Below are positions 1,243-18,578 of a stretch of DNA of 18,579 nt, piece by piece. How positions within the stretch are numbered: the first letter of the stretch is position 1; each line of letters opens with the position of its first letter. Origin of the DNA: Chthonomonadales bacterium (lineage in GTDB: Bacteria > Armatimonadota > Chthonomonadetes > Chthonomonadales > Chthonomonadaceae); contig JBBQPO010000108.1 in assembly GCA_038217285.1 (NCBI GenBank), positions 1 through 18,579 of the forward strand, read 5' to 3'. Both the position numbers and the translations under genes were made by a program. The notes beneath the pieces are model-generated. The model did not search any database. It was not told the origin of the DNA and saw nothing but the letters and a program-made list of their open reading frames with translations.

Positions 1243-2028
1243 CTAGGCCGAGGCCCCGGTGTAGTGCTTCAGGCCGAATCTCCAGAAGAACGAGGAGGCC
1301 GCTAAACTGATTACACCGACTGCGCAGGCGACTCCCAGAGGCATCTGACCGGCGCGACCGGAGAGGGCCTGCGCTGGGATGGTGATGATGAAGGCGACCG
1401 GAATGCCGTAGGTGAGCGCGCCGCGCAGCCATGCCGGATAGATCTCGATCGGGTAGCGCGCTGCCTCGAACCCCTGCCAGACGATCTGCTCGATGTTATC
1501 GACGCGGACGAACCAGAACGTCAGCGTTACCAGAAACAGCCAGAGCGAGTAGACGACGGCGCAGCCTGCGGCCATCGTGAGCGCGAACGATGCTGCCTGC
1601 CCGATCCCAATATGTGCGCCCAGACGTCCGACCGCATAGGCGGTCAGGCCGATCCCGACCAGCACATTGGCCGCGCGCCAGATGACGATCGTTCGAAACG
1701 AGGCCAAAAACTGCGCACTCACCGGCTTCAGAAGCACGAAGTCGAGTGTGCCTTCGCGCACCTGCGTCATCACGTTCCGCATGTTCGGGGCGATGAACAT
1801 CTCCGTGAGGCCGTCCATCACATAGTAGACCGCCACCAGCACCAACACCTGCTGGTAGGTCCAGCCCTTCAGTGTCGAGGTGTAGCCGTAGGCGATGGCA
1901 AGGCCGCCGACCGTGGCGACCAGGCCGAGCAGGCTCGCGACGATCCGCGTAAAGAAGTCCGCCCGATACTCCATATCGGTCTGTATGCTCGTGCGATAGA
2001 GCACCTTCAGCAGTCGTAAATAGCGCAT
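1243..2028 (-). CDS. ABC-2 family transporter permease
   Basis: Multi-TM protein with VREGTLDFVLLKPVSAQF, RYPIEIYP and a C-terminal GLKHYTGAS. Start moved to MRYLRL at 2028, just after the upstream stop at 2031. Confidence 0.9.
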   Translation of the reverse strand: MRYLRLLKVLYRTSIQTDMEYRADFFTRIVASLLGLVATVGGLAIAYGYTSTLKGWTYQQVLVLVAVYYVMDGLTEMFIAPNMRNVMTQVREGTLDFVLLKPVSAQFLASFRTIVIWRAANVLVGIGLTAYAVGRLGAHIGIGQAASFALTMAAGCAVVYSLWLFLVTLTFWFVRVDNIEQIVWQGFEAARYPIEIYPAWLRGALTYGIPVAFIITIPAQALSGRAGQMPLGVACAVGVISLAASSFFWRFGLKHYTGASA

Positions 2029-2030
2029 GG

Positions 2031-2849
2031 TCAGGCTCCTACCGACGAGTACTGTCGTATACCCGCCTCCCACAGCGTTCGCAACAGAACGACAGCGACC
2101 ACGAGCCAGACACCCTGCAGCGCAAAACCTGGCAGGATCTGTTCCGGCGGCACCCGGCCCAGCGCCAACTCGACCGGAAAGGAGCCCATAGCACGGAAGG
2201 GGGAGTAGAGCGCAAAGGCCGCGATCCAGGCAGGCATCAGCGCGATGGGCGCGATACGGCCTGCGAGGAAGCTGTCGAGCGTAAAGTAGAGTTGGTTGAT
2301 CGCGTCTACCCGTGTGGTCCAGAAGGCCACCAGGGCCAGCGAGTACTGCAAGACATACCGCAGCACACAGGCGACCGCGAGCGCCGGGATCGCCAACAGC
2401 GAAAACGCATTGAGGACGATGTGCGGTTTTAGGAGCCAGAAGAGAATCGCCCAGACCGGGAGCAGCATCGCACTGGTCGTCAGTTTGAACGCGATATTGG
2501 ACGCGGCGTCGCGGTGGATCGGATGGACCGGCTTGAGCAGCGCCGGGGAGAGTCCGCCGTTCTGCACGCGCATCGCAAACTCGAAGGCGTCCCAGGACAT
2601 CATCAAATGTCCAAAAACCATATAGACCAAAAAATAAGCGGCGAAATCTCCGGCGGCGAACGAGGCCCCGTTCGCCTTGTTGACGATGGTTCCACCCCGC
2701 GCGGCAGAGACGGCCGACCAGACCGCCAGGGAGATCAGCGGCCCTATAAATCCCCAGACCGCCCAGATCAGAATCGTAAAGCGATACTGCAGCATCGAGG
2801 CGATCGCCACCCGCAGATTCGCTCGGTAGAGGTCAAGCCAGTACTTCAT
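2031..2849 (-). CDS. ABC-2 family transporter permease
   Basis: 272-aa multi-TM protein with NGGLSPALLKPVHP and a C-terminal GIRQYSSVGA. It overlaps the 3' end of the ATPase gene. Confidence 0.9.
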   Translation of the reverse strand: MKYWLDLYRANLRVAIASMLQYRFTILIWAVWGFIGPLISLAVWSAVSAARGGTIVNKANGASFAAGDFAAYFLVYMVFGHLMMSWDAFEFAMRVQNGGLSPALLKPVHPIHRDAASNIAFKLTTSAMLLPVWAILFWLLKPHIVLNAFSLLAIPALAVACVLRYVLQYSLALVAFWTTRVDAINQLYFTLDSFLAGRIAPIALMPAWIAAFALYSPFRAMGSFPVELALGRVPPEQILPGFALQGVWLVVAVVLLRTLWEAGIRQYSSVGA

Positions 2850-3834
2850 TTTTGGGCGCCTCCTGAAACACCTGTTCGATAACGGCCTCGATAGGAGGAT
2901 CGGCGACGGTCAGGTCCAGAATCGGCAGATCTTGAAGCAGACGCGCGACCACCGCCGACGTCTCCGTTCGGGGCAGACGCAGGGTCACTTTCAGCCCGTC
3001 CTGCTCCACGACCTCGCCGAACTGCGCGACCAGGGCGGCGGCCTCCGCGTTTTCGACATCCACGGTGACCAGTTTGAAGGGTGCGATGCGTTCCGAAAGC
3101 GCGTCGATGGGGCCATCGTACAGCAGGCGTCCGCGATGAATCACAATGATACGCTTGCAGAGGGCCGTCACATCGGCCATGTAGTGGCTTGTCAGCAGAA
3201 TCGTCGCGCCGTATTTCGCGTTATGCTCTGCGATGAACTGCCGGATACGCACCTGCATGCTGACATCGACGCCCAGCGTAGGCTCGTCCAGAAACAGCAC
3301 TTTGGGCCGATGCAAAAGGGAAGCGGCCAGCTCACACTTCATGCGTTCCCCAAGCGACAAATTGCGTACGGGCTTCTTGATAACATCGCCAAGTTCGAGC
3401 AGTTCGACCAACTCCTTGAGAGTCTGCCGATAGTCCGCCTCGGGGATGGCATAGACCGCCTGGTTGACCGAGAAGGAGTCGAGGGCCGGAATATCCCACG
3501 TCAACTGATTGCGGTTGCCCATCACCAACCCGATATGCTTCAGATAGGCTGGCTCCCGCTTCCACGGCACGTGCCCCAACACATGCGCCTCGCCTCCTGT
3601 CGGGTGCAGTAATCCGGACAGCATCTTCAGAGTGGTCGTCTTCCCAGCACCGTTCGGCCCGAGAAAGCCAACGATTTCGCCCGCCTCCACGGTAAAACTG
3701 ACACTGTCCACCGCCCGCACATCCTTATACTTGCGCTGAAAAAGGCTTCGAATCGAGGCCCCTACCCCGGCCTCACGCTCATGCACCCGATAAACCTTCT
3801 CCAGGCCCTTTAGAACAATCTGTGCTTCCACCAT
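2833..3834 (-). CDS. ABC transporter ATP-binding protein
   Basis: Walker A GPNGAGKTT, signature LSLGERMK, Walker B VLFLDEPT and H-loop LTSH. Start placed at MVEAQ (3834) because of an upstream GGGGAG and because the promoter lies inside the longer ORF call. Confidence 0.93.
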   Translation of the reverse strand: MVEAQIVLKGLEKVYRVHEREAGVGASIRSLFQRKYKDVRAVDSVSFTVEAGEIVGFLGPNGAGKTTTLKMLSGLLHPTGGEAHVLGHVPWKREPAYLKHIGLVMGNRNQLTWDIPALDSFSVNQAVYAIPEADYRQTLKELVELLELGDVIKKPVRNLSLGERMKCELAASLLHRPKVLFLDEPTLGVDVSMQVRIRQFIAEHNAKYGATILLTSHYMADVTALCKRIIVIHRGRLLYDGPIDALSERIAPFKLVTVDVENAEAAALVAQFGEVVEQDGLKVTLRLPRTETSAVVARLLQDLPILDLTVADPPIEAVIEQVFQEAPKNEVLA

Positions 3835-3852
3835 TCGTTTCTCCCCGTCCAC

Positions 3853-3881
3853 ATTATAGCAGACTGCCCGACACATGTCAA
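3853..3881 (-). promoter_or_regulatory. Sigma-70 promoter for the ABC operon
   Basis: Minus strand reads TTGACA (3881-3876), a 17-nt spacer, then TATAAT (3858-3853): a perfect consensus 18 nt upstream of the ATG. Confidence 0.88.
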
Positions 3882-3911
3882 CGCTAATATTTTCGCTCTT
3901 AACGGTGTTCA

Positions 3912-4017
3912 CGGGTTTGAAACCCCGCGCTGAAATGGCAAGTCCGCCTTCGCGGACTCAATGCCTTAACCCGCGAAGGCAGGTTTGCCCTTTCAGAACG
4001 GCAATTCATTGCCGGGG
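3912..4017. repeat. REP-like inverted doublet (REPIN/BIME-like)
   Basis: CTGAAATGGCAAGTCCGCCTTCGCGGACT (3930-3958) pairs imperfectly with AACCCGCGAAGGCAGGTTTGCCCTTTCAG (3968-3996). Flanking mini-hairpins GGGTTTGAAACCC and CGGCAATTCATTGCCG. Confidence 0.75.
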
Positions 4018-4326
4018 AGAGTGTGCACGGGCTACGCAGGGTTGCTTAAGGCCTTCTTTCCTCAAGGTCACACTCCGTGCCACCTTTAGGAAAGCGACGG
4101 CGAGGGGGGAAGTCTCTTCGGTGCGATGAATCGCCGTGAGCTCGGTGGTGGGTTGGGGTTCCTCGAAGTGTCGATAGGCGATTCCCTCGCGGTGCGCGTC
4201 TTGAACGGACGCGGGAACGAGAGTAACCCCCAGTCCTGCGGCCACCAGACTGATGGCTGTGTGGATCTCAGCGGCCTCCTGCGCGACCTGTGGCGAGAAT
4301 CCGGCTCCTTCGCACAGGGAGATGAG
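4006..4326 (-). pseudogene. LysR-family regulator, C-terminal substrate-binding fragment
   Basis: LISLCEGAGFSPQVAQEAAEIHTAISLVAAGLGVTLVPASVQ..GIAYR..ETSPLAVAFL is a typical LysR C-terminus. There is no HTH, and the sequence upstream in this frame is the antisense of an ACP. Confidence 0.8.
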
Positions 4327-4509
4327 GAGCGGATCACTCCGGAGACATCCTTGATAGGAGATCTGGTAGCGGACTCGCTGGACGTCGTGGAGATCACGAT
4401 GGAATTGGAGGAGGCTTTCGATGTGGAGTTTGGAGACGACGCCGTGGCCCTGACCACAGTGCAGCAGATCGTGGACTACATTCAAACCAAACTGGACGAC
4501 CAGCGGTAA
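4321..4509 (+). pseudogene. acpP: Acyl carrier protein, 5'-truncated
   Basis: DEERITPETSLIGDLVADSLDVVEITMELEEAFDVEF..LTTVQQIVDYI contains the DSL phosphopantetheine site. Helix I and the native start are missing and replaced by LysR antisense sequence. Confidence 0.75.
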
Positions 4510-4797
4510 ATAGATGCTGTTGTCAGCCTTTCGACTGCTGCCTGTCACTACCAATAGTCACCCCCCTCGCGAAGCACACGGCCGATCTGGAGGTGCGCGA
4601 GACGGTCGAAGAGTGCCTCCCCTTTCTATAAAGGCACCTGGAACAGGAGCGCGCCAGTCAGACTCTGCTTTGCGCCTCAAGCGCAAGCGGGGCGGATCCG
4701 GCGCTTCTGTTGCGGCTGGCGCAAGAAGCCTCAAAACACGCCCCCAACGAGATATTACGCTCCAGCGCTGCGCCTGAGTCCGATGTCGCAAAGAGCG

Positions 4798-7108: not shown

Positions 7109-10100
7109 TTATTTCGAAGCGGGCTTTGTGTCCGGCAGGGCGAAGGCGATGTAGGCATCGCCGCTTTTGGTGCGTAGTTTGCCGCCGCCACCGGCCGCGA
7201 TGACGACATACTGCCGACCGTTTACTCGATACGTGGAAGGCGTGGCGTAGCCTCCGTTCGGAAGCTTGAACTCCCAGAGCAGACGGCCCGTCGCCTTGTC
7301 GAAGACGTGAAACTTCTCGTCTTTGGTGCCTCCGATGAAGACCAACCCGCCCGCCGTGACGACAGTGCCGCCGAAGTTCTCGGTACCGGTCTGCGGGACG
7401 CCTTTGGCGGTCAGCTCGGGATATTCGCCCAGACGTATCTGCCAGGCGAAGGTGCCGGTGTTCAGGTCGATGGCAGTCAGGCTCCCCCACGGCGGCTTGT
7501 TGCCGGGATAGCCGAGCTGGTCGTTGAAGTAGGTGTAGCCGCCGAAATCGTAGCCCCCGGCGGCATTGGGCCGGATTACGGAGATATAGGCAACGTTATT
7601 GGAGTTGACGTAGAGCAGGCCCGTTGTCGGATCGAAGGAACCGCCGCTCCAGTTGGCGCCACCGTGGAAACCCGGAGAGACGACGGTTCCCATCGTCGTC
7701 GGCGGGGTGTAGGGCTGACCGTACCGCAGACCGCGCAGCATCTGCGCGACATAGTCATGCGATTCCGGGGAGATGTCGGTGATCTGGTCTGCGGTGAAAT
7801 AGCCGCGTGAGAACGGCGGCGGTCTGACCGGTTCGGGCTGCGTCGGGTGCGCCTGCTCGCCGGGAATGTCCGAGGGCGTTGAAGGCTTCTCCACGACATC
7901 GAAGAGGGGCTTGCCGGTCAGGCGGTCGAAGAGGTAGCAGAAGCCGGTCTTGGTGAGCTGCGCGACCGCTTCGACTCGTTTGCCGTTGTGCAGAACGGTG
8001 ACGACGATGGGCGGACAGGGGTTGTCGTGGTCCCACAGGTCGTGATGGACCGCCTGGAAGTGCCAGAGGCGTTTGCCGGTGCGGGCATCGAGGGCGATAG
8101 TGCAGTTGGCGAACAGGTTCGCGCCTTTACGATCCGCACCGTAGAAGTCAGACGCGGCGGAGCCCAGTCCGGCGAAGAGAATGCCGTGTTTATCGTCGAG
8201 CGTATAGCCGGACCAGGCGTTGACGCCGGTGCGATCTTTCCAGCCGTCGCCCTCCCAGGTTTCGCTGCCGACCTCACCCGGCCGTGCGACCGTGTGGAAC
8301 CGCCAGACCTCCTTCCCGGTGCGGACATCGAAGGCGCGCACATCGCCCGGCGCGCCGGGCTGCCCTTCGGAAACCAGAAAGCCGGTGTAGACCAGGTTCT
8401 CGAAGACGGCAGGCGCGGAGGTGACGCCGTAGGCCGTGCCGCGAATATCGCGCTCGATCCCGATCCGTAGGTCCAGGATGCCGTTCTTGCCAAAGGCAGG
8501 GTCGGGTATGCCCGTATGCGCGTCGAGGGAGAAGAGGCGACCGTCCGGCGTTCCCATCAGGATACGGCGTTGGCCCTTCGGCTTGCCGTCCGTCCAGTAG
8601 GCGACACCGCGGTTGACGCCACCGGAATGCGTGCTGTATTTCCAGATCTCGCGCCCGGTCGCGGCGTCGAGCGCGACGATTTTGAGGTCGGCCGTCGTCA
8701 CGTACATCACGCCGTCCACGACGACCGGCGTACACTCGATGGTGCTGCCGGGCGAGGCGCCTCCGCCGTGGTAGGTCCAGGCGACTTCAAGCCGTGCGAC
8801 ATTGCTCCGGTCGATCTGATTTAGCGTCGAGAAACGCATCCCGCCCTTGTCGTTGCCGACATTGAGCCAGTCCAGAGAAGTGCGCCTGTCCACGACCGGC
8901 AGCGGCCCGGCAGGGGTCGGATTCTGCTCGGCGACGACGGCAGTCTCACCCCGGCGTCGGGCCGGGTTGTTCAGGCGTCCCATATCCGCATAACGCCCCT
9001 GCTCCAGAGCGTCGAAGCGCCAGAGTCCTAACGAGGCGTCTTCCAGAGGGAGGGGGGCGACTGGTACTGCTTTGATGTCGAGCGCCGACTGAGAGATTCG
9101 CACGTCGTCGATCAGGCCATCACAGCCGATCTCGCCGGAGACCAGACTGCCGAACGCCAGTTCACCGGGCTGCGAGGTACCGACGTTCGCGACAATCGCC
9201 TGATCCACGGCCTGCCTGCCGTCTACATAGAGACGCACACGACCGGCCGTGTAGACCATCGCCAGGTGGTGCCAGTGGTCGTCGCAGACATCGAAGCCGG
9301 AACGGACATGGTCCGGTGTCACGCCTGGCATATAGACCGTAAACTGCCCGGTCTGTGCGAAGGTAAACATCTCCCAATGGGTGCTGGAGCTCTTGTCTTC
9401 ATTCGCGACCAGGATGTTGAAGTTGGTCTTCGAGTGTATTTTGGCCCAGCACTCGACCGTGAGCGGGGGAGTGCGGTAGGCCACGCGGCCCGGCGCGAAC
9501 GCCCCACCGACGCGGGCGTCGAGGGCTTTCCCGAACCGTCCTTCCGCCAGAGGCTCTCCGGTCACTTTCGCCTGATTTTTCGCCGTCTGGAGCGACTGTT
9601 CGACGGTCCACTGGCTGCCCACTCGGAAGGGCGCGTTGGTGACCAATGCTATGGGCGGATCGAAGCTGAGCCGGTCGAGGCGTGCGGCCCAGGCTGCCCC
9701 TCGCCGGATCAGCGCCCCTGCGCTGCGCACCGCTGGCCCATCGTGCCCGAGCATCGTCTGAAAGATTCGCCCCTTCCCATAGAGATAGGTCCAGGCCAGT
9801 GGTTCGTCCTGGCCGGTCACTTTGGAGTGTGCGGTAACCAGGGGCACAATGGGCTGATCCCCGACCTGCTTGAAGTAGAGTTCGTCCGTGGTGTCGAACG
9901 CCTTCAGTCCGGCGGTGATGGGATCCTTCGTTGGGGCAACATCGACATGAAATGGGCCGTAGGGGTCGTGACCGCTCGGCAGGTCATGCATCCAGGCGCG
10001 GCGGACGATGCGGGTCCGATACTCTTTCCACTCCGACTCTTTGTTGGGCAGGGTGTAGTTGAAAGCGCCGTTGGCGAAATGAATGATCGCCAGGCCGCCG

Positions 10101-11203
10101 CCGTTTTCCAGGTAGCGGACAAATCCGGCCTTCGCCGCCTCGCTCAGACCGGGGCGATCCCAGTTGTTGTAGTTCATGACAAGCAGATCGTAGCCCGCGA
10201 TTTTGGGCGTCACAAGGTCTTCGATCTGTTCGGTGACATCGACCTGGAGGCGTGGATCCTGTTCGAGCGTCTGAATCAGGGCGGCGGTCAACTGCCGCCA
10301 GTCGTGGCCGGGATGATGGTAACCGGTCAGGATCAACGCTTTCACCGGCTGTTCCAGCCGCGAATCGACTCCGCCCGCTGGTACCTCGACGCCCGCCGTC
10401 CAGACGATAGCGTTCAGGATCAGACGCCGATAGTCGGGCAGCCACCAGTTTTTGAAGAAGTGTCCGCCGGTGTAGCCGAAGCCGCGCCCGCCATCCTTAC
10501 GCTGAACCGCCCAGCCCACCGGATAGTCGGTCGATTCGTTCGGCGGACGGCTGAGCAGAATCGGAGTCACCCGCGCATCGTCGGGCTGGAAGCGAATCTT
10601 ATAGTAGAACTCCTCTTCCACGGTAAAGGGCTTGACGCCGCGCAGTATCGGACTTGTAGCCGCGCCGAGCGTAACGGGAGCCGTATAGGTCTGAATGGCG
10701 GAGTACCAGTGGTTGGGCGCCGTTCCGGTTTCGTAATCGAAATAGCCGCCGACCCAGTCGGTGATCTGGGCCTGGAACCGGCTCGGGGCGAAGGTAGACC
10801 AGTGGAACTCCATCAAACCGCAGCCACGGCGCATTTGCCGCTCGATCACCTTCAGCCGGTCACCCACATAGAGCGGATGGTCGGCCTCATTGCGGTCGCT
10901 GCCATCGGTGACGAAGACGATGGTGTCGGCATCGTCGAGAGTGCGTTCGTCTTCGGGCCAGCCGTGAAAGCAGGCCTCCGTCCGCACGTTTTTGAGATTC
11001 GGGGCGGTGTCGAGCAGGGTCTTGAGCAGGATCACGCTCTTCTCGTATTCGTGCGTCTGCTTGTCGTGTCCGATCATCGACCCAGCGATGAGGACGATCT
11101 TCCGCATTCGCACTGCCGGGGCCGCACTCACCACGCCTGTCGTCAGACTCAGCGTTATCCCTGCCGCCAGCGCCCACATCCAGGTTTTCAAAACCAGGTG
11201 CAT
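7109..11203 (-). CDS. Secreted multidomain protein: two ThuA-like domains, LamG/concanavalin-like domain and PQQ-dependent glucose/quinate dehydrogenase-like domain
   Basis: Signal peptide; ThuA-like 1 (KIVLIAG..GGRGFGYTGGH); ThuA-like 2 (KALILTGYHHPGHDW..GKGRIFQTMLGH); LamG (LTVECW..DDHWHHLAMVY..GLIDDVRIS); PQQ propeller (RFSTLNQIDRSNVARLEVAW, NRGVAYW, HHDLWDHD, GGANWSG, PPWG, GTENFGG, YATPSTY). Confidence 0.88.
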   Translation of the reverse strand: MHLVLKTWMWALAAGITLSLTTGVVSAAPAVRMRKIVLIAGSMIGHDKQTHEYEKSVILLKTLLDTAPNLKNVRTEACFHGWPEDERTLDDADTIVFVTDGSDRNEADHPLYVGDRLKVIERQMRRGCGLMEFHWSTFAPSRFQAQITDWVGGYFDYETGTAPNHWYSAIQTYTAPVTLGAATSPILRGVKPFTVEEEFYYKIRFQPDDARVTPILLSRPPNESTDYPVGWAVQRKDGGRGFGYTGGHFFKNWWLPDYRRLILNAIVWTAGVEVPAGGVDSRLEQPVKALILTGYHHPGHDWRQLTAALIQTLEQDPRLQVDVTEQIEDLVTPKIAGYDLLVMNYNNWDRPGLSEAAKAGFVRYLENGGGLAIIHFANGAFNYTLPNKESEWKEYRTRIVRRAWMHDLPSGHDPYGPFHVDVAPTKDPITAGLKAFDTTDELYFKQVGDQPIVPLVTAHSKVTGQDEPLAWTYLYGKGRIFQTMLGHDGPAVRSAGALIRRGAAWAARLDRLSFDPPIALVTNAPFRVGSQWTVEQSLQTAKNQAKVTGEPLAEGRFGKALDARVGGAFAPGRVAYRTPPLTVECWAKIHSKTNFNILVANEDKSSSTHWEMFTFAQTGQFTVYMPGVTPDHVRSGFDVCDDHWHHLAMVYTAGRVRLYVDGRQAVDQAIVANVGTSQPGELAFGSLVSGEIGCDGLIDDVRISQSALDIKAVPVAPLPLEDASLGLWRFDALEQGRYADMGRLNNPARRRGETAVVAEQNPTPAGPLPVVDRRTSLDWLNVGNDKGGMRFSTLNQIDRSNVARLEVAWTYHGGGASPGSTIECTPVVVDGVMYVTTADLKIVALDAATGREIWKYSTHSGGVNRGVAYWTDGKPKGQRRILMGTPDGRLFSLDAHTGIPDPAFGKNGILDLRIGIERDIRGTAYGVTSAPAVFENLVYTGFLVSEGQPGAPGDVRAFDVRTGKEVWRFHTVARPGEVGSETWEGDGWKDRTGVNAWSGYTLDDKHGILFAGLGSAASDFYGADRKGANLFANCTIALDARTGKRLWHFQAVHHDLWDHDNPCPPIVVTVLHNGKRVEAVAQLTKTGFCYLFDRLTGKPLFDVVEKPSTPSDIPGEQAHPTQPEPVRPPPFSRGYFTADQITDISPESHDYVAQMLRGLRYGQPYTPPTTMGTVVSPGFHGGANWSGGSFDPTTGLLYVNSNNVAYISVIRPNAAGGYDFGGYTYFNDQLGYPGNKPPWGSLTAIDLNTGTFAWQIRLGEYPELTAKGVPQTGTENFGGTVVTAGGLVFIGGTKDEKFHVFDKATGRLLWEFKLPNGGYATPSTYRVNGRQYVVIAAGGGGKLRTKSGDAYIAFALPDTKPASK

Positions 11204-13983: not shown

Positions 13984-14012
13984 GTGCCATGCGATGGGAA
14001 ATGGCGTATAAT
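13984..14012 (+). promoter_or_regulatory. Candidate sigma-70 promoter for the selenoprotein gene
   Basis: GTGCCA (13984-13989), a 17-nt spacer, then TATAAT (14007-14012). Confidence 0.45.
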
Positions 14013-14144
14013 GCAGGCAGGGTTATCTTGGGCGACGCGGATACCCCGATCACAGAACCTGGATCGGCTGTTTGTGCTGCGTCTGCCCTCAGGTTGAAAG
14101 CAAAAGGGGAATCCGGCAGCACACTACCGGGAGGAGTAAATTCT

Positions 14145-15182
14145 ATGCAGAAACGACCGATTTTTCTGGCTTTGCCCTGGCTGTGCGTCGTGGGCGGCGG
14201 ACTGTCGAGTCCTGCCGTGCAGGCGCAGAGTCGGGCCGAGCTCGTCTCGAAGGGCGAACGCTTCGAAATCAAGCAGGTTCTAAAGGCAGAGGGCACGACC
14301 GTGGTCCTGTTCGTGCAGGAGACGAGTGTCATCGAGCAGCAGTTCTTGACCGACCTTAAGACGCAGTTGCCGAAGGACGACAAGGTGATCCTGGATGTGG
14401 TGCGCCTGAAGGCCCTCACGGCGCCAGTGGCTCTGCAATATAGGATCAAAGCGACGCCGACGGCCATCGTCTACGATCGCTTCGGACGGGAGCTTGCCCG
14501 CACCTCGCAGCCGGACGAGATTCGCGCGGGAGTGCGCAAGGGCATGTTGATGGGGCGCATCAAGTGGATCGATGAAGACGATCCCAAAGCGCCAGAAGTC
14601 TACGGAGCGCCTCCGGAGGCGCTGAAACAGGGGATCCCTGGCATTGTGAAGACGATGGCGCTCCGCCCGGAAGCCTACAAGATGTTCAACATCATGTCGC
14701 AAATCCACTTTTCAGACGGCTTCCTGAAGCGGCGGGAGCATGAGATGATCGCCGCCTATGTCTCCTCGCTCAACAAGTGCAAATTTTGACTGGGCTCACA
14801 TGCTGCCGCGTTGCGGGAGCAAAATGTAGACCAGGATCTCGTCGATGCGATCGGCACCGGCGACCTGAGCAAAGTAAAACTGACGCCAAAGGATCAGGCG
14901 CTGCTGACCTACGTCAAACTCTTGACCCTGAACTCCGCGCATACGCAGGACGCGGACGTACAGACGATGCGGGAAGCCGGTTGGACGGACGAACAGATTT
15001 GGGAAGCCTCCTTCGAAGTAGGCATGTTCTCCTTCCTCAATCGAATGTCCGACGCGCACGGCCTCGACTATCCGAAGGGCGGATGGATGCCGCCGCAACT
15101 GCGCGCACAACTGGAGCAGGCAAAGCCGGCACAACCTGAGCAGGCAAAGCCCAAGGAACCAGGAGGCGTCGCCCCACGTTAA
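14145..15182 (+). CDS. Predicted selenoprotein: signal peptide, Cys-less thioredoxin-like domain and AhpD/CMD-like peroxidase-related domain with CxxU (UGA at 14787-14789, codon 215 of 345)
   Basis: GGAGGAG RBS before the ATG at 14145. EMIAAYVSSLNKCKF-TGA-LGSHAAALREQ continues in frame into ORF 14811..15182, which encodes the second half of the AhpD-like fold (LTPKDQALL..AGWTDEQIWE..FSFLNRMSDAHG). A stem-loop follows the UGA directly. Confidence 0.88.
14790..14834 (+). promoter_or_regulatory. Putative bacterial SECIS element
   Basis: By-eye fold: CTGG/CCAG, TC/GA, ACAT/ATGT, GCT/AGC, a G.G mismatch, then CCGC/GCGG closing a GTT loop (14810-14812). The loop starts with G and begins 20 nt after the UGA. 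Confidence 0.65.
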
Positions 15183-15248: not shown

Positions 15249-16223
15249 ATGAGGGTACTTCAGGCAGAACCGCAGGACTGGCCGAAGGCGATAGAAGAGG
15301 CCCGAACTTTGGGATGTGAGGCGATGGCATGGGCCCTTACGTCTCCGGTCGGGGAGGCCGTGCTCCAGGCGACGCAGGCAGCAGGACTGGAATCGCATGC
15401 CTGGCTGCAGGTCGCGCGTGACCCATCCGCCGTGGCGCAGCATCCCGAGTGGATGCACTGTCCTCAGCACCACGAATGGCTGACGCGCTTTCCCGACTAT
15501 TCGGGCGGGCATCCGGCCGTCGTCGCGCCCTACCTCGGCCTGAATACGCAGGCCGCTTTTCAGTACGCCCTCGCCACGGCCAGACAGAAGATCGAGGCCG
15601 CGCCCTGGGCGCGGCGGGTCTGGCTGGCCGATATTCAAGGTCCGCCGATGGGCTGTGGATGCGGCAATCCGTCCTGTCGCAGTTGGGACAATGCGCCGGG
15701 GCCGAAGCTTGCCAGCACCCCCTACGATCGTCCGGAAGTTCTGTTTCCTCTGGAGTTCTCCACCGCGCTCACGGCGGCGCTGCCGAACCGAGACGTTGTG
15801 CCCGTCCTCTGCCCGGAGTGCGAGCGGTTTATCGATCTCGACGGTGTGCCGGATCCGGACGGCCCGCAGGGCACGGACCTGTGCCAGGGAATCCCCTGCG
15901 GCGACATCTGCACCCTCCAGTATTTTCCCAGTCTGCTCGCCGGTTTCCGCCGACAGGGTGGGCAAATCGGGCTGCTCTTGATGGTGGACGCACTGGAGAA
16001 GAACCATCCTGTGTTCGGCGCGCCTCGCCAATGGGCGATGCACGCCCACCGACACTACGGAACGGATATGATCGCCTGCGTCGAACTCGAGGACGCGGGC
16101 CGGTTCGATAAGGCGCTGATCTTAACGAACGCTCCGCAGGACTGCTGGCCGGTTCCTCCCCCACCCGGCTATCGTGCCGAAGTTCCGCCGATAATGTGCG
16201 GCTACTGCCCGCCTGTGTTCTGA
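15249..16223 (+). CDS. Cysteine-rich hypothetical protein, possibly metal or Fe-S binding
   Basis: AGGAGGT RBS; 324 aa with clusters HCPQHH, CGCGNPSC, CPEC, CQGIPCGDIC and CGYC. No obvious signal peptide. Confidence 0.8.
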   Translation: MRVLQAEPQDWPKAIEEARTLGCEAMAWALTSPVGEAVLQATQAAGLESHAWLQVARDPSAVAQHPEWMHCPQHHEWLTRFPDYSGGHPAVVAPYLGLNTQAAFQYALATARQKIEAAPWARRVWLADIQGPPMGCGCGNPSCRSWDNAPGPKLASTPYDRPEVLFPLEFSTALTAALPNRDVVPVLCPECERFIDLDGVPDPDGPQGTDLCQGIPCGDICTLQYFPSLLAGFRRQGGQIGLLLMVDALEKNHPVFGAPRQWAMHAHRHYGTDMIACVELEDAGRFDKALILTNAPQDCWPVPPPPGYRAEVPPIMCGYCPPVF

Positions 16224-16410: not shown

Positions 16411-16947
16411 CTACTGTAGCATCGCGTCGACGGCCTTCTCGACCTGGGGCAGTTTGGCTGCATCCACGTCTACGAAATTGCCTTTGATCGATCCCCTCCA
16501 GATGAGTACCGTGTTTTTGGCGGAGGGGCTGATCTTGTAGGCCGCGATGTCCTCTTCGTTGACGCCCTTGGGCAGAAAGACGAGCGGGATGGTGGTTTTG
16601 TTGTCGGCCGCGATCTTCTGAATGGCGTCTTTTGCTTCGGGACCGCTCATGAAGACCACGAAGCTCTTGAGGCGCTTGGACTTATGGCTGTCGACCATTT
16701 TCTGAATGTCGGCCACCAGCTTGGTCGCCTTGGTCGCGTCGCCGTTCACGAAGACAGCGACAACGGGGGAGGCGCCGTAGGCGCAGCGATAGCAGAGTTC
16801 CTTGCCCTTGTGCGGCCCGGTGACATCGACCACCTGGAACGCGCCCGGAAATGCGCCCGGCTTGAGCCCTGACTCTACGGCGGCGAAAGCGGTCACGGCG
16901 AGCATACTTGCGGCGGCCACGAACAGGCCCAGTTTCAGTTTCCTCAT
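16411..16947 (-). CDS. Secreted thioredoxin/redoxin-like protein with CxxC (CYRC)
   Basis: AAGGAG RBS, signal peptide ending AFA, and SGLKPG..AFQVVDVTGPHKGKELCYRCAYG..PVVAVF, which resembles a redoxin-like N-terminus. Confidence 0.75.
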   Translation of the reverse strand: MRKLKLGLFVAAASMLAVTAFAAVESGLKPGAFPGAFQVVDVTGPHKGKELCYRCAYGASPVVAVFVNGDATKATKLVADIQKMVDSHKSKRLKSFVVFMSGPEAKDAIQKIAADNKTTIPLVFLPKGVNEEDIAAYKISPSAKNTVLIWRGSIKGNFVDVDAAKLPQVEKAVDAMLQ

Positions 16948-17078: not shown

Positions 17079-18578
17079 TCATAGTTCTCTTACGTATTCG
17101 AGAAGGTCTTTTCTCTCCGCGTCAGACAGTTCGTGCGCCTTCCCATGCATCTTTTTCGGGTTCTGCTCCGAAAATACCTCCTCCAGGGTCCGTGCCTTGC
17201 CATCGTGGAGGTAAGGGTCCGTGTCGTAGACTCCGTCCAGCCGAGGCACTTGCAGGTCCATGCCCGGAGGCGTCGTACCGATCCATGCTTTCTGCCGCCC
17301 ACCCGCGCGAGGGCCGGAATGGCACGATACGCAGCCGGCTTTGCCCTCGAACAGCGCTTTGCCGCGCACGGCCGGGGCGGTGAAGGCGTTGTCGGATGCG
17401 CGGAACGGGTTCAGGGTCAGCGGCAAAGATCCCACGTAAGCCGCGAGGGCATGAACCTCGGCAGGCGTCGGTTTTTCTCCCTGGAGAAGACCCGGTATCT
17501 CCTCCTCGATAAAGCGCTCCAGACTGGGTTCGTGGCCGCTCCAGCGATACGGGCCGCTCTCCCCGATGTGGCCACGCAGACCTTTCGCGTTGCGGTCGAT
17601 CTCCTTCCCCAGCGCGTCCTTCACATGCACGAACTTCCAGGAGATGCCGTCGGTGCCGCCGTCCGGATGGCAGGAGTTGCAGCTGAACTGCCCGCCCTTG
17701 ACGATGGTCGCCGTCGTGAACAGATACCGACCCAGCAGCGTGGGGTCTTTTCGGGCTGTCGGCCCCAGATTGATTCGGCGCGTTATGCGCAGCGACTGCG
17801 GATCGACGACCGCCAGATCGTTGCCGAGCATATTCGCAACCCAGAGCTCTTTTCCGTCCGGCGTGAAGGCCAGGCCGGACGGATGCGCGCCGATGTTCCG
17901 TACCGTCAGGGTGTTCCCGTCGCCGCTTACAGGAACGATATTGAGGCTGTGGCCGCCGCTGCAGGTCACAAAAGCCCGTCTGCGCTGCGCATCCAGAACG
18001 ACGGAGTCCGGATCAGCGACATCCTGGCCCATCAGGTCGAGCCAGAGGTTCTGGACGCCGTTGCGGGGACCGTCCGGAACTTGAAGGAACGCCTGATTGG
18101 ACCAGATCCCGATCGAGGTCTCCGTCGGCCTCTCGTTCTGGGCGCGCTGCCCGACGACGAACGCCTGACGCCCGTCCGGAAACACGGCGATTCCGCGCAG
18201 GTTTACGGCGGGCGTCCGCCCCTGCGCGGTTTCGATGCGGGTGGCGGTGTCCAGGTAGCTGATGGAGCCGGCGGTCATGTTCGCGGTGACGACCGTCGCG
18301 CCATCGGGGGTGATGGCCAGCGCGCGGGGTCGGCGACCGGTCGGGATCGTGCCCACGATCTTACGCGCCGCCACATCTATAATCGCGACCTGATCGAGTT
18401 GGCTGACCGAAACGTAGGCGCGGGCTCCATCCGGCGACAACACCACATCCCACGGCGCGCCCCGAAGCGGCAGAATCTCTGCCTTGCAGGCGTTCAGATC
18501 CACAAAGGCGACGGAGCCGCTGAGGCTGTTGGTCACGACCGCTAGCGCGCCATTCGGAGTGACTGCAACCCCCGTCGG
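17079..18578 (-). CDS. YVTN-type beta-propeller plus di-heme cytochrome c (cytochrome c peroxidase/MauG-like C-terminus); 5' end lies outside the window
   Basis: Propeller repeats (PTGVAVTPNG, PWDVVLSPDG, PRALAITPDG, PSGLAFTPDG), two CxxCH motifs (CNSCH, CVSCH), and PYLHDG..TLEEV..DLLEYVREL. The frame is open to the window edge. Confidence 0.88.
   Translation of the reverse strand, partial: PTGVAVTPNGALAVVTNSLSGSVAFVDLNACKAEILPLRGAPWDVVLSPDGARAYVSVSQLDQVAIIDVAARKIVGTIPTGRRPRALAITPDGATVVTANMTAGSISYLDTATRIETAQGRTPAVNLRGIAVFPDGRQAFVVGQRAQNERPTETSIGIWSNQAFLQVPDGPRNGVQNLWLDLMGQDVADPDSVVLDAQRRRAFVTCSGGHSLNIVPVSGDGNTLTVRNIGAHPSGLAFTPDGKELWVANMLGNDLAVVDPQSLRITRRINLGPTARKDPTLLGRYLFTTATIVKGGQFSCNSCHPDGGTDGISWKFVHVKDALGKEIDRNAKGLRGHIGESGPYRWSGHEPSLERFIEEEIPGLLQGEKPTPAEVHALAAYVGSLPLTLNPFRASDNAFTAPAVRGKALFEGKAGCVSCHSGPRAGGRQKAWIGTTPPGMDLQVPRLDGVYDTDPYLHDGKARTLEEVFSEQNPKKMHGKAHELSDAERKDLLEYVREL

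Follow-up and report, generated by a model that had tools for sequence, protein, structure and literature searches.

A predicted exported AhpD-like selenoprotein of Armatimonadota with a thioredoxin-like domain lacking the CxxC site

Known AhpD-like proteins and the Chthonomonadales gene

AhpD-like selenoproteins with a C-x-x-U motif (COG2128/TIGR01926) have been in print since 2005. The available text of PMC1088965 gives 27 sequences, Table 2 of PMC2398784 lists 299 for the AhpD-like family, and such proteins also stand in a table in the available part of PMC13188914. A member of this family was identified in an 18,579-nucleotide stretch of DNA from a Chthonomonadales bacterium of the Armatimonadota (contig JBBQPO010000108.1; the whole stretch is called the window hereafter), where a + strand gene at 14145..15182 is interrupted by an in-frame TGA. 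The protein appears to consist of an export signal, a thioredoxin fold without CxxC and an AhpD-type domain with C-x-x-selenocysteine. This three-part layout had been proposed in an earlier note made from the letters of the window, and it agreed with the present analysis in every detail that was checked.

The AhpD-like selenoproteins from the Sargasso Sea and the Global Ocean Sampling (GOS) metagenomes share with the window protein the C-x-x-U motif, selenocysteine as its second redox residue and a hairpin after the UGA. Neither a signal peptide nor an N-terminal thioredoxin-like domain is given for them in the available text of those papers, whereas the window protein carries about 136 extra N-terminal residues, which are fixed across Armatimonadota. 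The solved AhpD-like relatives are stand-alone proteins of 188-197 residues. Among them D. radiodurans DR_1765 (6k40) and the structural-genomics entries 2oyo, 2pfx, 2prr and 3c1l matched best in both sequence and fold (36% identity over 142 columns); they have Cys in place of selenocysteine and no N-terminal extension, and are presumably cytoplasmic. The family NF041238 (AhpD_rel_CFYUT, "hypothetical protein 1" of the Sargasso Sea) has about 357 residues with C-x-x-U in the C-terminal half and a long N-terminal extension, as far as the available part of PMC13188914 goes. The window protein matched it in the AhpD part alone, with the motif CKFUL against CFYUT.

No description of a signal peptide, a redox-dead thioredoxin fold and an AhpD-type selenocysteine domain in one protein was found in the literature, in a search that left supplements and BSepDB aside. 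The catalytic family and its use of selenocysteine have long been known, and what appears to be new is the predicted exported layout with the dead thioredoxin domain. The earlier note had called the combination unfamiliar, which holds for the literature found; the catalytic family itself was published in 2005, and the layout is already present in databases under generic names.

The in-frame TGA and the hairpin after it

The gene and the elements around the TGA were located as follows.

14145..15182, + strand: whole selenoprotein gene, 345 codons and the stop codon TAA (15180-15182), read through the TGA at 14787-14789
14787..14789, + strand: in-frame TGA read as selenocysteine U215; TGA conserved at the homologous loci, Cys there in the natural homologue P0002
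14790..14834, + strand: stem-loop resembling a selenocysteine insertion sequence (SECIS), fold -26.5 kcal/mol, z -1.08
14802..14820, + strand: apical hairpin with GUU loop, kept in 6/6 sequences

The frame is opened by the ATG at 14145, and every peptide string quoted in the earlier note was found in its translation. The interval 14145-14570 singled out there is the 5' portion of one + strand gene, and the open reading frame (ORF) 14811-15182 of the ORF list lies in the same frame as the ORF of ATG 14145. When the TGA is read as selenocysteine, the motif around it is N-K-C-K-F-U-L-G-S-H.

Five further loci (L001-L005), from Chthonomonadales, Chthonomonadaceae or unclassified metagenome-assembled genomes, were revealed by a tblastn scan of species-representative genomes. 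The TGA was in frame at the identical position in all five (6/6 sequences with the window), and the 110-130 codons on its 3' side encoded conserved protein in each of them, with 60-82% protein identity over the tblastn match spanning the TGA. A word-based protein search gave 148 relatives at an expect value (E) <= 0.001. Among the 120 of these that were listed, all had 190-249 residues except P0002 (336 aa), which reads straight through as C-K-F-C-L-G-S-H. In the set of close homologues (n=129, window protein counted in), 126 ended at C-[KR]-[FY], exactly where the window has TGA, and the remaining three were the window protein, P0002 and the chimeric-looking ORF P0179. For the wider clade, 120 proteins among the matches listed comprised 98 that end at C-x-x, 20 with C-x-x-C-x-x-x-H, one with S-x-x-C and one other; natural Cys forms were therefore represented by P0002 and by these 20 proteins.

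The apical hairpin after the TGA was kept in all six sequences, and its pair 30:44 covaries (CG in three, UA in one, UG in one and GC in one). The change on the 3' side of this pair alters the encoded amino acid, and the change on the 5' side is a silent Ala wobble. The assignment of the hairpin as a SECIS is plausible from these six related sequences.

By this comparison the TGA at 14787-14789 is best read as a selenocysteine codon rather than a stop. That it is a true stop, leaving a 214-aa product and a downstream frame that is a separate gene or non-coding, is extremely improbable. Such a stop would fall halfway through the C-x-x-C motif and split the AhpD domain there, and it disagrees with the next 130 codons being in frame and conserved in 6/6 sequences, with homologues that have TGC/TGT-type Cys codons and read straight through, and with the conserved hairpin. 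What speaks for it is that public gene calls nearly all stop at the TGA (126/129 close homologues; 98/120 in the wider clade among the matches listed) and that selenocysteine machinery was not seen in the window or the five loci.

Some results count against the selenocysteine reading and its SECIS. The folding energy of the stem-loop is unexceptional in a single sequence (z -1.08), covariation occurred in only 1/7 apical pairs among six related sequences, and Rfam at gathering score gave 0 matches over the whole window. Furthermore, selA, selB, selD and tRNA-Sec were absent from the window and from L001-L005, with 0 tRNA genes in the window and 0 in the five loci, so that selenocysteine decoding in the organism rests on conservation alone. 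As to other selenoprotein genes in the window, a crude C-x-x-U scan of its long TGA-read-through frames gave noise apart from 14787.

AhpD-like catalytic domain

The TGA lies within the C-terminal domain, for which two features were recorded.

14553..15134, + strand: AhpD-like/peroxidase-related domain (TIGR01926, Pfam CMD), residues ~137-330; hidden Markov model (HMM), PDB and Foldseek matches
14742..14801, + strand: active-site stretch E200 ... C212-K-F-U215-L-G-S-H219; aligned to E...C-V-Y-C-A-V-S-H of 6k40

The NCBIfam model TIGR01926 (peroxidase-related enzyme) was matched with 94.4 bits (cut-off 81.8), over profile positions 27-170 of 178 and residues 163-304 of the protein, and Pfam CMD (PF02627) was matched at E 4.6e-13. 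The sequence also matched PDB 6k40 at E 2e-21, and E200, C212, U215 and H219 were aligned with E, C, C and H of that protein; E200 and C212 were each present in 128/129 close homologues. Foldseek placed 6k40, 3c1l, 2prr, 2pfx and 2oyo at the top (E 3.9e-10 to 4.6e-08), with a target template modelling (TM) score of 0.69 for 6k40. In the AlphaFold2 (AF2) model the predicted local distance difference test (pLDDT) was mostly 80-96 at residues 181-310 and 60-78 at residues 165-180. HMM score, motif and fold place the protein in the known AhpD-like (TIGR01926) selenoprotein family.

Two narrower models scored below their cut-offs: canonical AhpD (TIGR00777) had 21.2 bits against 191.95, and the NF041238 equivalog had 49.3 bits against 175, over profile positions 175-337 of 357 only. 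A word-based search with residues 150-330 returned the same truncated family only, with no other layouts and no NF041238 member. Residues 137-162 were conserved (W141, E144, D145, P147 and Y153) and had low model confidence; they were tentatively assigned to the AhpD-like domain because the N-terminal positions of the TIGR01926 profile, which had no match, would be expected there.

We infer a peroxide or disulfide reductase activity, which follows from family membership only. Another chemistry known for CMD/AhpD proteins might instead be carried out in the envelope, on reactive chlorine, in thiol-dependent dehalogenation or on selenium or metal compounds, and we regard this as unlikely. No substrate is defined for the subfamily TIGR01926, which is only "peroxidase-related", the debrominase Bmp8 (6ohj) was among the Foldseek matches (E 2.9e-05), and the AhpD-family protein RcsA acts in hypochlorous acid resistance according to the available part of PMC9751292, all of which would suit it. 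On the other hand, the mutant of the nearest characterised relative is H2O2-sensitive and its function CxxC-dependent, as given in the available part of a review (PMC8945050), and the set E...C-x-x-C/U-x-x-x-H is that of AhpD-type redox centres. These two points favour the peroxide or disulfide reductase.

Thioredoxin-like domain without active-site cysteines

Between the putative signal peptide and the AhpD-like domain, the following features were identified.

14232..14552, + strand: redox-dead thioredoxin-fold domain, residues ~30-136; AF2 models, Foldseek and hhalign
14325..14336, + strand: S61-V-I-E64 at the C-G-P-C position, at the N-terminus of helix 62-73; hhalign column mapping
14454..14459, + strand: T104-P105, equivalent of the thioredoxin cis-Pro loop; hhalign mapping

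The domain had a pLDDT of about 90 in the full-length AF2 model, and when modelled alone it reached a mean pLDDT of 84 and a predicted template modelling score (pTM) of 0.76. Its secondary structure was strand-strand-helix-strand-helix-strand-strand-helix, the order expected for a thioredoxin fold. The PDB matches listed by Foldseek for the domain model were thioredoxins or thioredoxin fusions only, with E from 7.1e-05 and TM scores of 0.53-0.68.

A profile of the 108-residue N-terminal domain (A2) was built from the window and the five loci. Searched against 1.84 billion representatives, it gave 57 proteins at E <= 0.001, which fell into three groups: divergent proteins that share the layout (four of them Cys forms with 296-349 aa), degenerate forms that are short and stand alone, and real W-C-G-P-C proteins. 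Two long matches, P0159 and P0165, had no Pfam thioredoxin domain and were set aside as probably due to chance or low complexity. The A2 profile was then aligned by hhalign with nine W-C-G-P-C thioredoxins, with a probability of 98.9%, E 3.2e-17 and 100 columns; six of the nine were scanned and lay above the PF00085 cut-off, and P0171, P0174 and P0176 were outside that scan. In this alignment F-V-Q-E-T-S-V-I-E was placed over F-Y-A-D-W-C-P-G-C, with S61 and E64 matching the two Cys, and A-T-P-T was placed over G-I-P-Y, with P105 matching the cis-Pro. The earlier note had read a thioredoxin fold with SVIE in place of CxxC, and the profile alignment, the model of the domain alone and the Foldseek matches listed all bear this out.

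Standard family models were less sensitive to this domain. Pfam and NCBIfam recognised nothing in residues 1-160, and no Pfam thioredoxin family was found with the window protein (E up to 1) or with the domain alone (E up to 10); a weak match to Thioredoxin_2 (E 0.066) was obtained in 1/6 orthologues. The profile of the N-terminal domain against PDB sequences gave non-significant matches (E 0.25-1.6), four of five to thioredoxin-family proteins and the fifth to a hypothetical protein, and these are a lead only. The N-terminal domain is therefore a thioredoxin homologue without the active site of the family and below the Pfam threshold, and is called thioredoxin-like here rather than thioredoxin. 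It shares with exported or anchored PF00085 thioredoxins ("FYADWCGPC") the homologous fold, the order of strands and helices, the cis-Pro loop and a V-Y-D-R motif. In contrast to them, both active-site Cys are replaced (by S and E), the preceding Trp is missing, and no dithiol-disulfide exchange is possible.

In the close set S61, E64, T104 and R112 were each conserved in 128/129 proteins, P105 in 129/129 and D111 in 127/129. In the divergent set of the same family (n=25), the first position was S in 19/25, the second was E or D in 25/25, and T-P was present in 25/25. The earlier note had also asked whether homologues keep CxxC in the thioredoxin domain, and none was found to do so: CxxC was absent from the N-terminal domain of all close (0/128) and divergent (0/25) homologues, and from the region upstream of the T-P motif in the wider clade (0/120 among the matches listed). 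Judged from these sequences, the cysteine loss is ancient and the replacement S-x-x-E is itself conserved. S61 immediately precedes helix 62-73, in which E64 is the third residue; S-x-x-E at the N-cap and N3 of this helix presumably forms a helix capping box, and we take it to stand in structurally for the lost active site.

Among distant relatives of the N-terminal domain, P0139, P0143, P0152 and P0153 contain tandem repeats of the thioredoxin-like unit. A W-C site was kept in at least one unit of P0143, P0152 and P0153; in P0139 the complete unit was degenerate, and the other unit was cut off at the start of the protein. These tandem-repeat relatives look like stages of the same decay.

Putative signal peptide and start codon

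The N-terminus and the translation start were described by two features.

14145..14225, + strand: predicted signal peptide, residues 1-27; QKR as n-region, a hydrophobic core and VQA ahead of Q
14130..14136, + strand: Shine-Dalgarno sequence GGAGGAG, 8-nt spacer to ATG 14145; read from the sequence

The window protein begins with M-Q-K-R (K3-R4), followed by a hydrophobic stretch and by V-Q-A ahead of Q28, and residues 1-28 had an AF2 pLDDT below 50. Signal-peptide features were counted by a simple in-house script in the 121/129 homologues whose first strand is preceded by 15 or more residues. A hydrophobic core (10-aa mean Kyte-Doolittle >= 1.6) was present in 120/121 and K or R ahead of the core in 115/121; a small -3/-1 site after the core was found in 121/121, by a lax criterion. 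The N-terminal sequence was variable and its character preserved, with a nearly invariant Ala at -1 (A27). Residues 1-27 look like a signal peptide of the general secretory pathway, and the protein is probably exported. Cultured Armatimonadota stain Gram-negative, and this makes the periplasm the likely destination. A twin-arginine (Tat) signal was also considered and rejected: the Tat consensus was missing from the 11/121 n-regions that contain RR, and K-R is found in the window protein.

The hydrophobic stretch could also be an uncleaved anchor or a lipoprotein signal, in which case the enzyme would be tethered to the inner membrane on its outer side. An L-[AVM]-A-C near residue 8-11 in many 208-aa homologues resembles a lipobox, and several homologues have a Cys within the hydrophobic core. 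However, a lipobox there would shorten the signal peptide to about 10 residues only, the Cys is missing from some members (e.g. L005 and P0121), the window residues before C14 (P-W-L) are unfit as a lipobox, and the conserved feature is instead an A-x-A-type site 4-6 residues ahead of the first strand. Because of the short peptide, the non-universal Cys and the P-W-L before C14, the lipoprotein signal was judged unlikely, and the tethered enzyme as a whole is quite improbable; a cleaved signal peptide is preferred.

A start codon upstream of the signal peptide had been proposed in the earlier note. GGAGGAG at 14130-14136 supports it, and purine runs resembling Shine-Dalgarno sequences stand upstream of the signal-peptide start in 6/6 orthologues, which disfavours a downstream start.

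Proposed function

The window protein is, with fair probability, a secreted and most likely periplasmic thiol/selenol oxidoreductase, in which the dead thioredoxin domain would serve as a binding or structural module. After export and cleavage of the signal peptide, U215 would attack a substrate located in the cell envelope, be it a peroxide, a sulfenate or a disulfide, and C212 would resolve the intermediate into a selenenylsulfide. This would then be re-reduced by some envelope reductant. The relative P0279 has S-x-x-C where the others have C-x-x-C/U; it keeps only the position equivalent to selenocysteine, which fits that position as the nucleophile.

The thioredoxin-like domain, which has lost its active-site cysteines, would carry no electrons, and the presumed capping box of S61 and E64 would keep the fold stable without them. 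In real thioredoxins the cis-Pro surface holds the substrate. Since the cis-Pro loop T104-P105 and D111-R112 are conserved, the domain would most likely bind a protein partner or substrate, like the redox-inactive b' domain of protein disulfide isomerase (PDI). A docking or substrate-binding role had also been suggested in the earlier note. The b and b' domains of PDI have a thioredoxin fold without CxxC and are joined to a redox-active module. The catalytic modules of PDI are thioredoxins, whereas the one of the window protein would be an all-helical AhpD fold with selenocysteine, and PDI is used as a working analogy only.

Possible too, though clearly less probable than a binding role, is that the domain has no ligand and is the fossil of an exported thioredoxin fused to AhpD, left as a scaffold for folding, solubility or oligomer formation only. 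The domain is kept throughout the family, and T104-P105 and D111-R112 are nearly invariant in close and divergent homologues alike, which goes beyond what a passive spacer usually shows and argues for binding. D-R is also conserved in the consensus of the real thioredoxin relatives, so it may be ancestral, which weakens the argument from D111-R112. The closest real relatives of the N-terminal domain are exported or anchored W-C-G-P-C thioredoxins, as a fossil would have it; S-x-x-E at the helix start is explicable by fold stability alone, if the presumed capping box is accepted, and no partner gene is conserved nearby.

The reading as a secreted oxidoreductase with a binding domain is itself weakened by several points. 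S-x-x-E and the cis-Pro may be conserved for purely structural reasons, and the signal-peptide call comes from a crude feature script. Residues 133-162 had low confidence in the full model, which had a pTM of 0.53, and the relative arrangement of the two domains is thus not given by the model; a complex prediction of the AhpD-like against the thioredoxin-like domain of P0002 (score 0.00, mark 0.32) gave no evidence either way. When the 195 ORFs within 7 kb of the gene were compared all against all by blastp, no neighbour was shared among the window and the five loci, the single exception being a weak L001-L002 pair with 24% identity, so that no partner, reductant, substrate or operon partner can be deduced. 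Finally, we know of nothing in the periplasm that donates electrons to an AhpD-type centre, and to our knowledge such centres are known only as cytoplasmic, lipoamide- or NADH-linked systems.

A further-reaching version is conceivable and rather doubtful: the protein might be a phylum-wide, hitherto unrecognised cell-envelope redox enzyme and the first exported AhpD-type selenoenzyme, its thioredoxin domain acting as a redox-silent adaptor, with S-x-x-E as a helix cap and the cis-Pro face preserved, that recruits an oxidised envelope protein or a membrane reductase of the DsbD/CcdA type to the selenocysteine centre. If true, reducing power would have a new extracytoplasmic route, or peroxides or sulfenates a new means of repair there. 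An exported AhpD-type centre poses the question of the electron source in the envelope, and a thioredoxin fold that lost both cysteines and kept its substrate-binding loop clearly illustrates how a catalytic domain may become an adaptor.

Distribution and annotation

A search seeded with the divergent Cys form P0132 yielded, among the matches listed, proteins from Capsulimonadales, Armatimonas rosea, Abditibacteriaceae and "Armatimonadota bacterium". As far as the sequences tell, the fused layout is present across Armatimonadota in public data. The selenocysteine forms were mostly annotated as a truncated "hypothetical protein" of about 210 aa, and in the Atlas the truncated form of 214 aa belonged to a 51-member "hypothetical protein" cluster, commonest in Armatimonadota. 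The Cys forms were named "peroxidase-related enzyme" or "carboxymuconolactone decarboxylase family protein". The annotation is systematically wrong, as the family entries stop at the selenocysteine codon and are mostly called hypothetical proteins, and a whole-phylum selenoprotein is largely invisible in it. The natural Cys forms, including P0203 of the cultured Armatimonas rosea, make a testable system.

Some relatives had unusual forms. P0203 (291 aa) was without the signal peptide and the first strand, possibly from a mis-called start. P0261 (479 aa) had a prepilin-type N-terminal domain protein fused ahead of the family, possibly a merged gene call, and P0179, on a contig of 1165 nt, joined an unrelated N-terminal half to the part after the TGA and was probably chimeric.

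Genome neighbourhood

The tblastn of 15 window ORFs against the five loci matched only the selenoprotein gene itself, and the gene appears to stand alone. Two further features of the gene and its upstream region were recorded.

15135..15179, + strand: low-complexity Pro/Gln/Lys-rich C-terminal tail; low pLDDT, length and sequence variable among orthologues
13984..14012, + strand: promoter-like GTGCCA-17-TATAAT; 1 site against 0.3 expected in shuffles, a consensus match and weak lead only

Downstream, a Cys-rich hypothetical protein of 324 aa (15249-16223, + strand) starts 67 nt past the selenoprotein gene. It had no family match, and in the Atlas it fell in unnamed clusters, with weak feature-based leads to the GHL10/DUF4015 glycosyl-hydrolase-like families. 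Another ORF (16411-16947, - strand; 178 aa) has an N-terminus resembling a signal peptide and a C-Y-R-C motif, with no Pfam or NCBIfam match; its similarity to StoA, a thiol-disulfide oxidoreductase, was non-significant (E 0.19). Lying 1.2 kb from the selenoprotein gene, it may encode a second exported redox protein, and it was not found beside the homologues. The ORF at 17079-18578 (- strand), which runs off the window end, combines a YncE/lactonase-like beta-propeller, a di-haem cytochrome c peroxidase/MauG-like domain and a cytochrome c domain. Its matches to hydrazine-synthase subunit models were weak and far below the cut-off, and it is probably another envelope haem protein.

Upstream, the ORF at 7109-11203 (- strand; 1364 aa) joins ThuA (trehalose utilisation), a Laminin-G/concanavalin-like domain and a full beta-propeller of a pyrroloquinoline quinone (PQQ)-dependent dehydrogenase (PF01011, E 9.4e-189), an unusually large fusion. 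An ABC-2 type transporter set was found at 1243-3912 (- strand), with two ABC2_membrane_6 permeases and an ATPase. Adjoining it, an ORF of 182 aa (4006-4554, - strand) contains the C-terminal part of a LysR substrate-binding domain only, and may be a truncated regulator.

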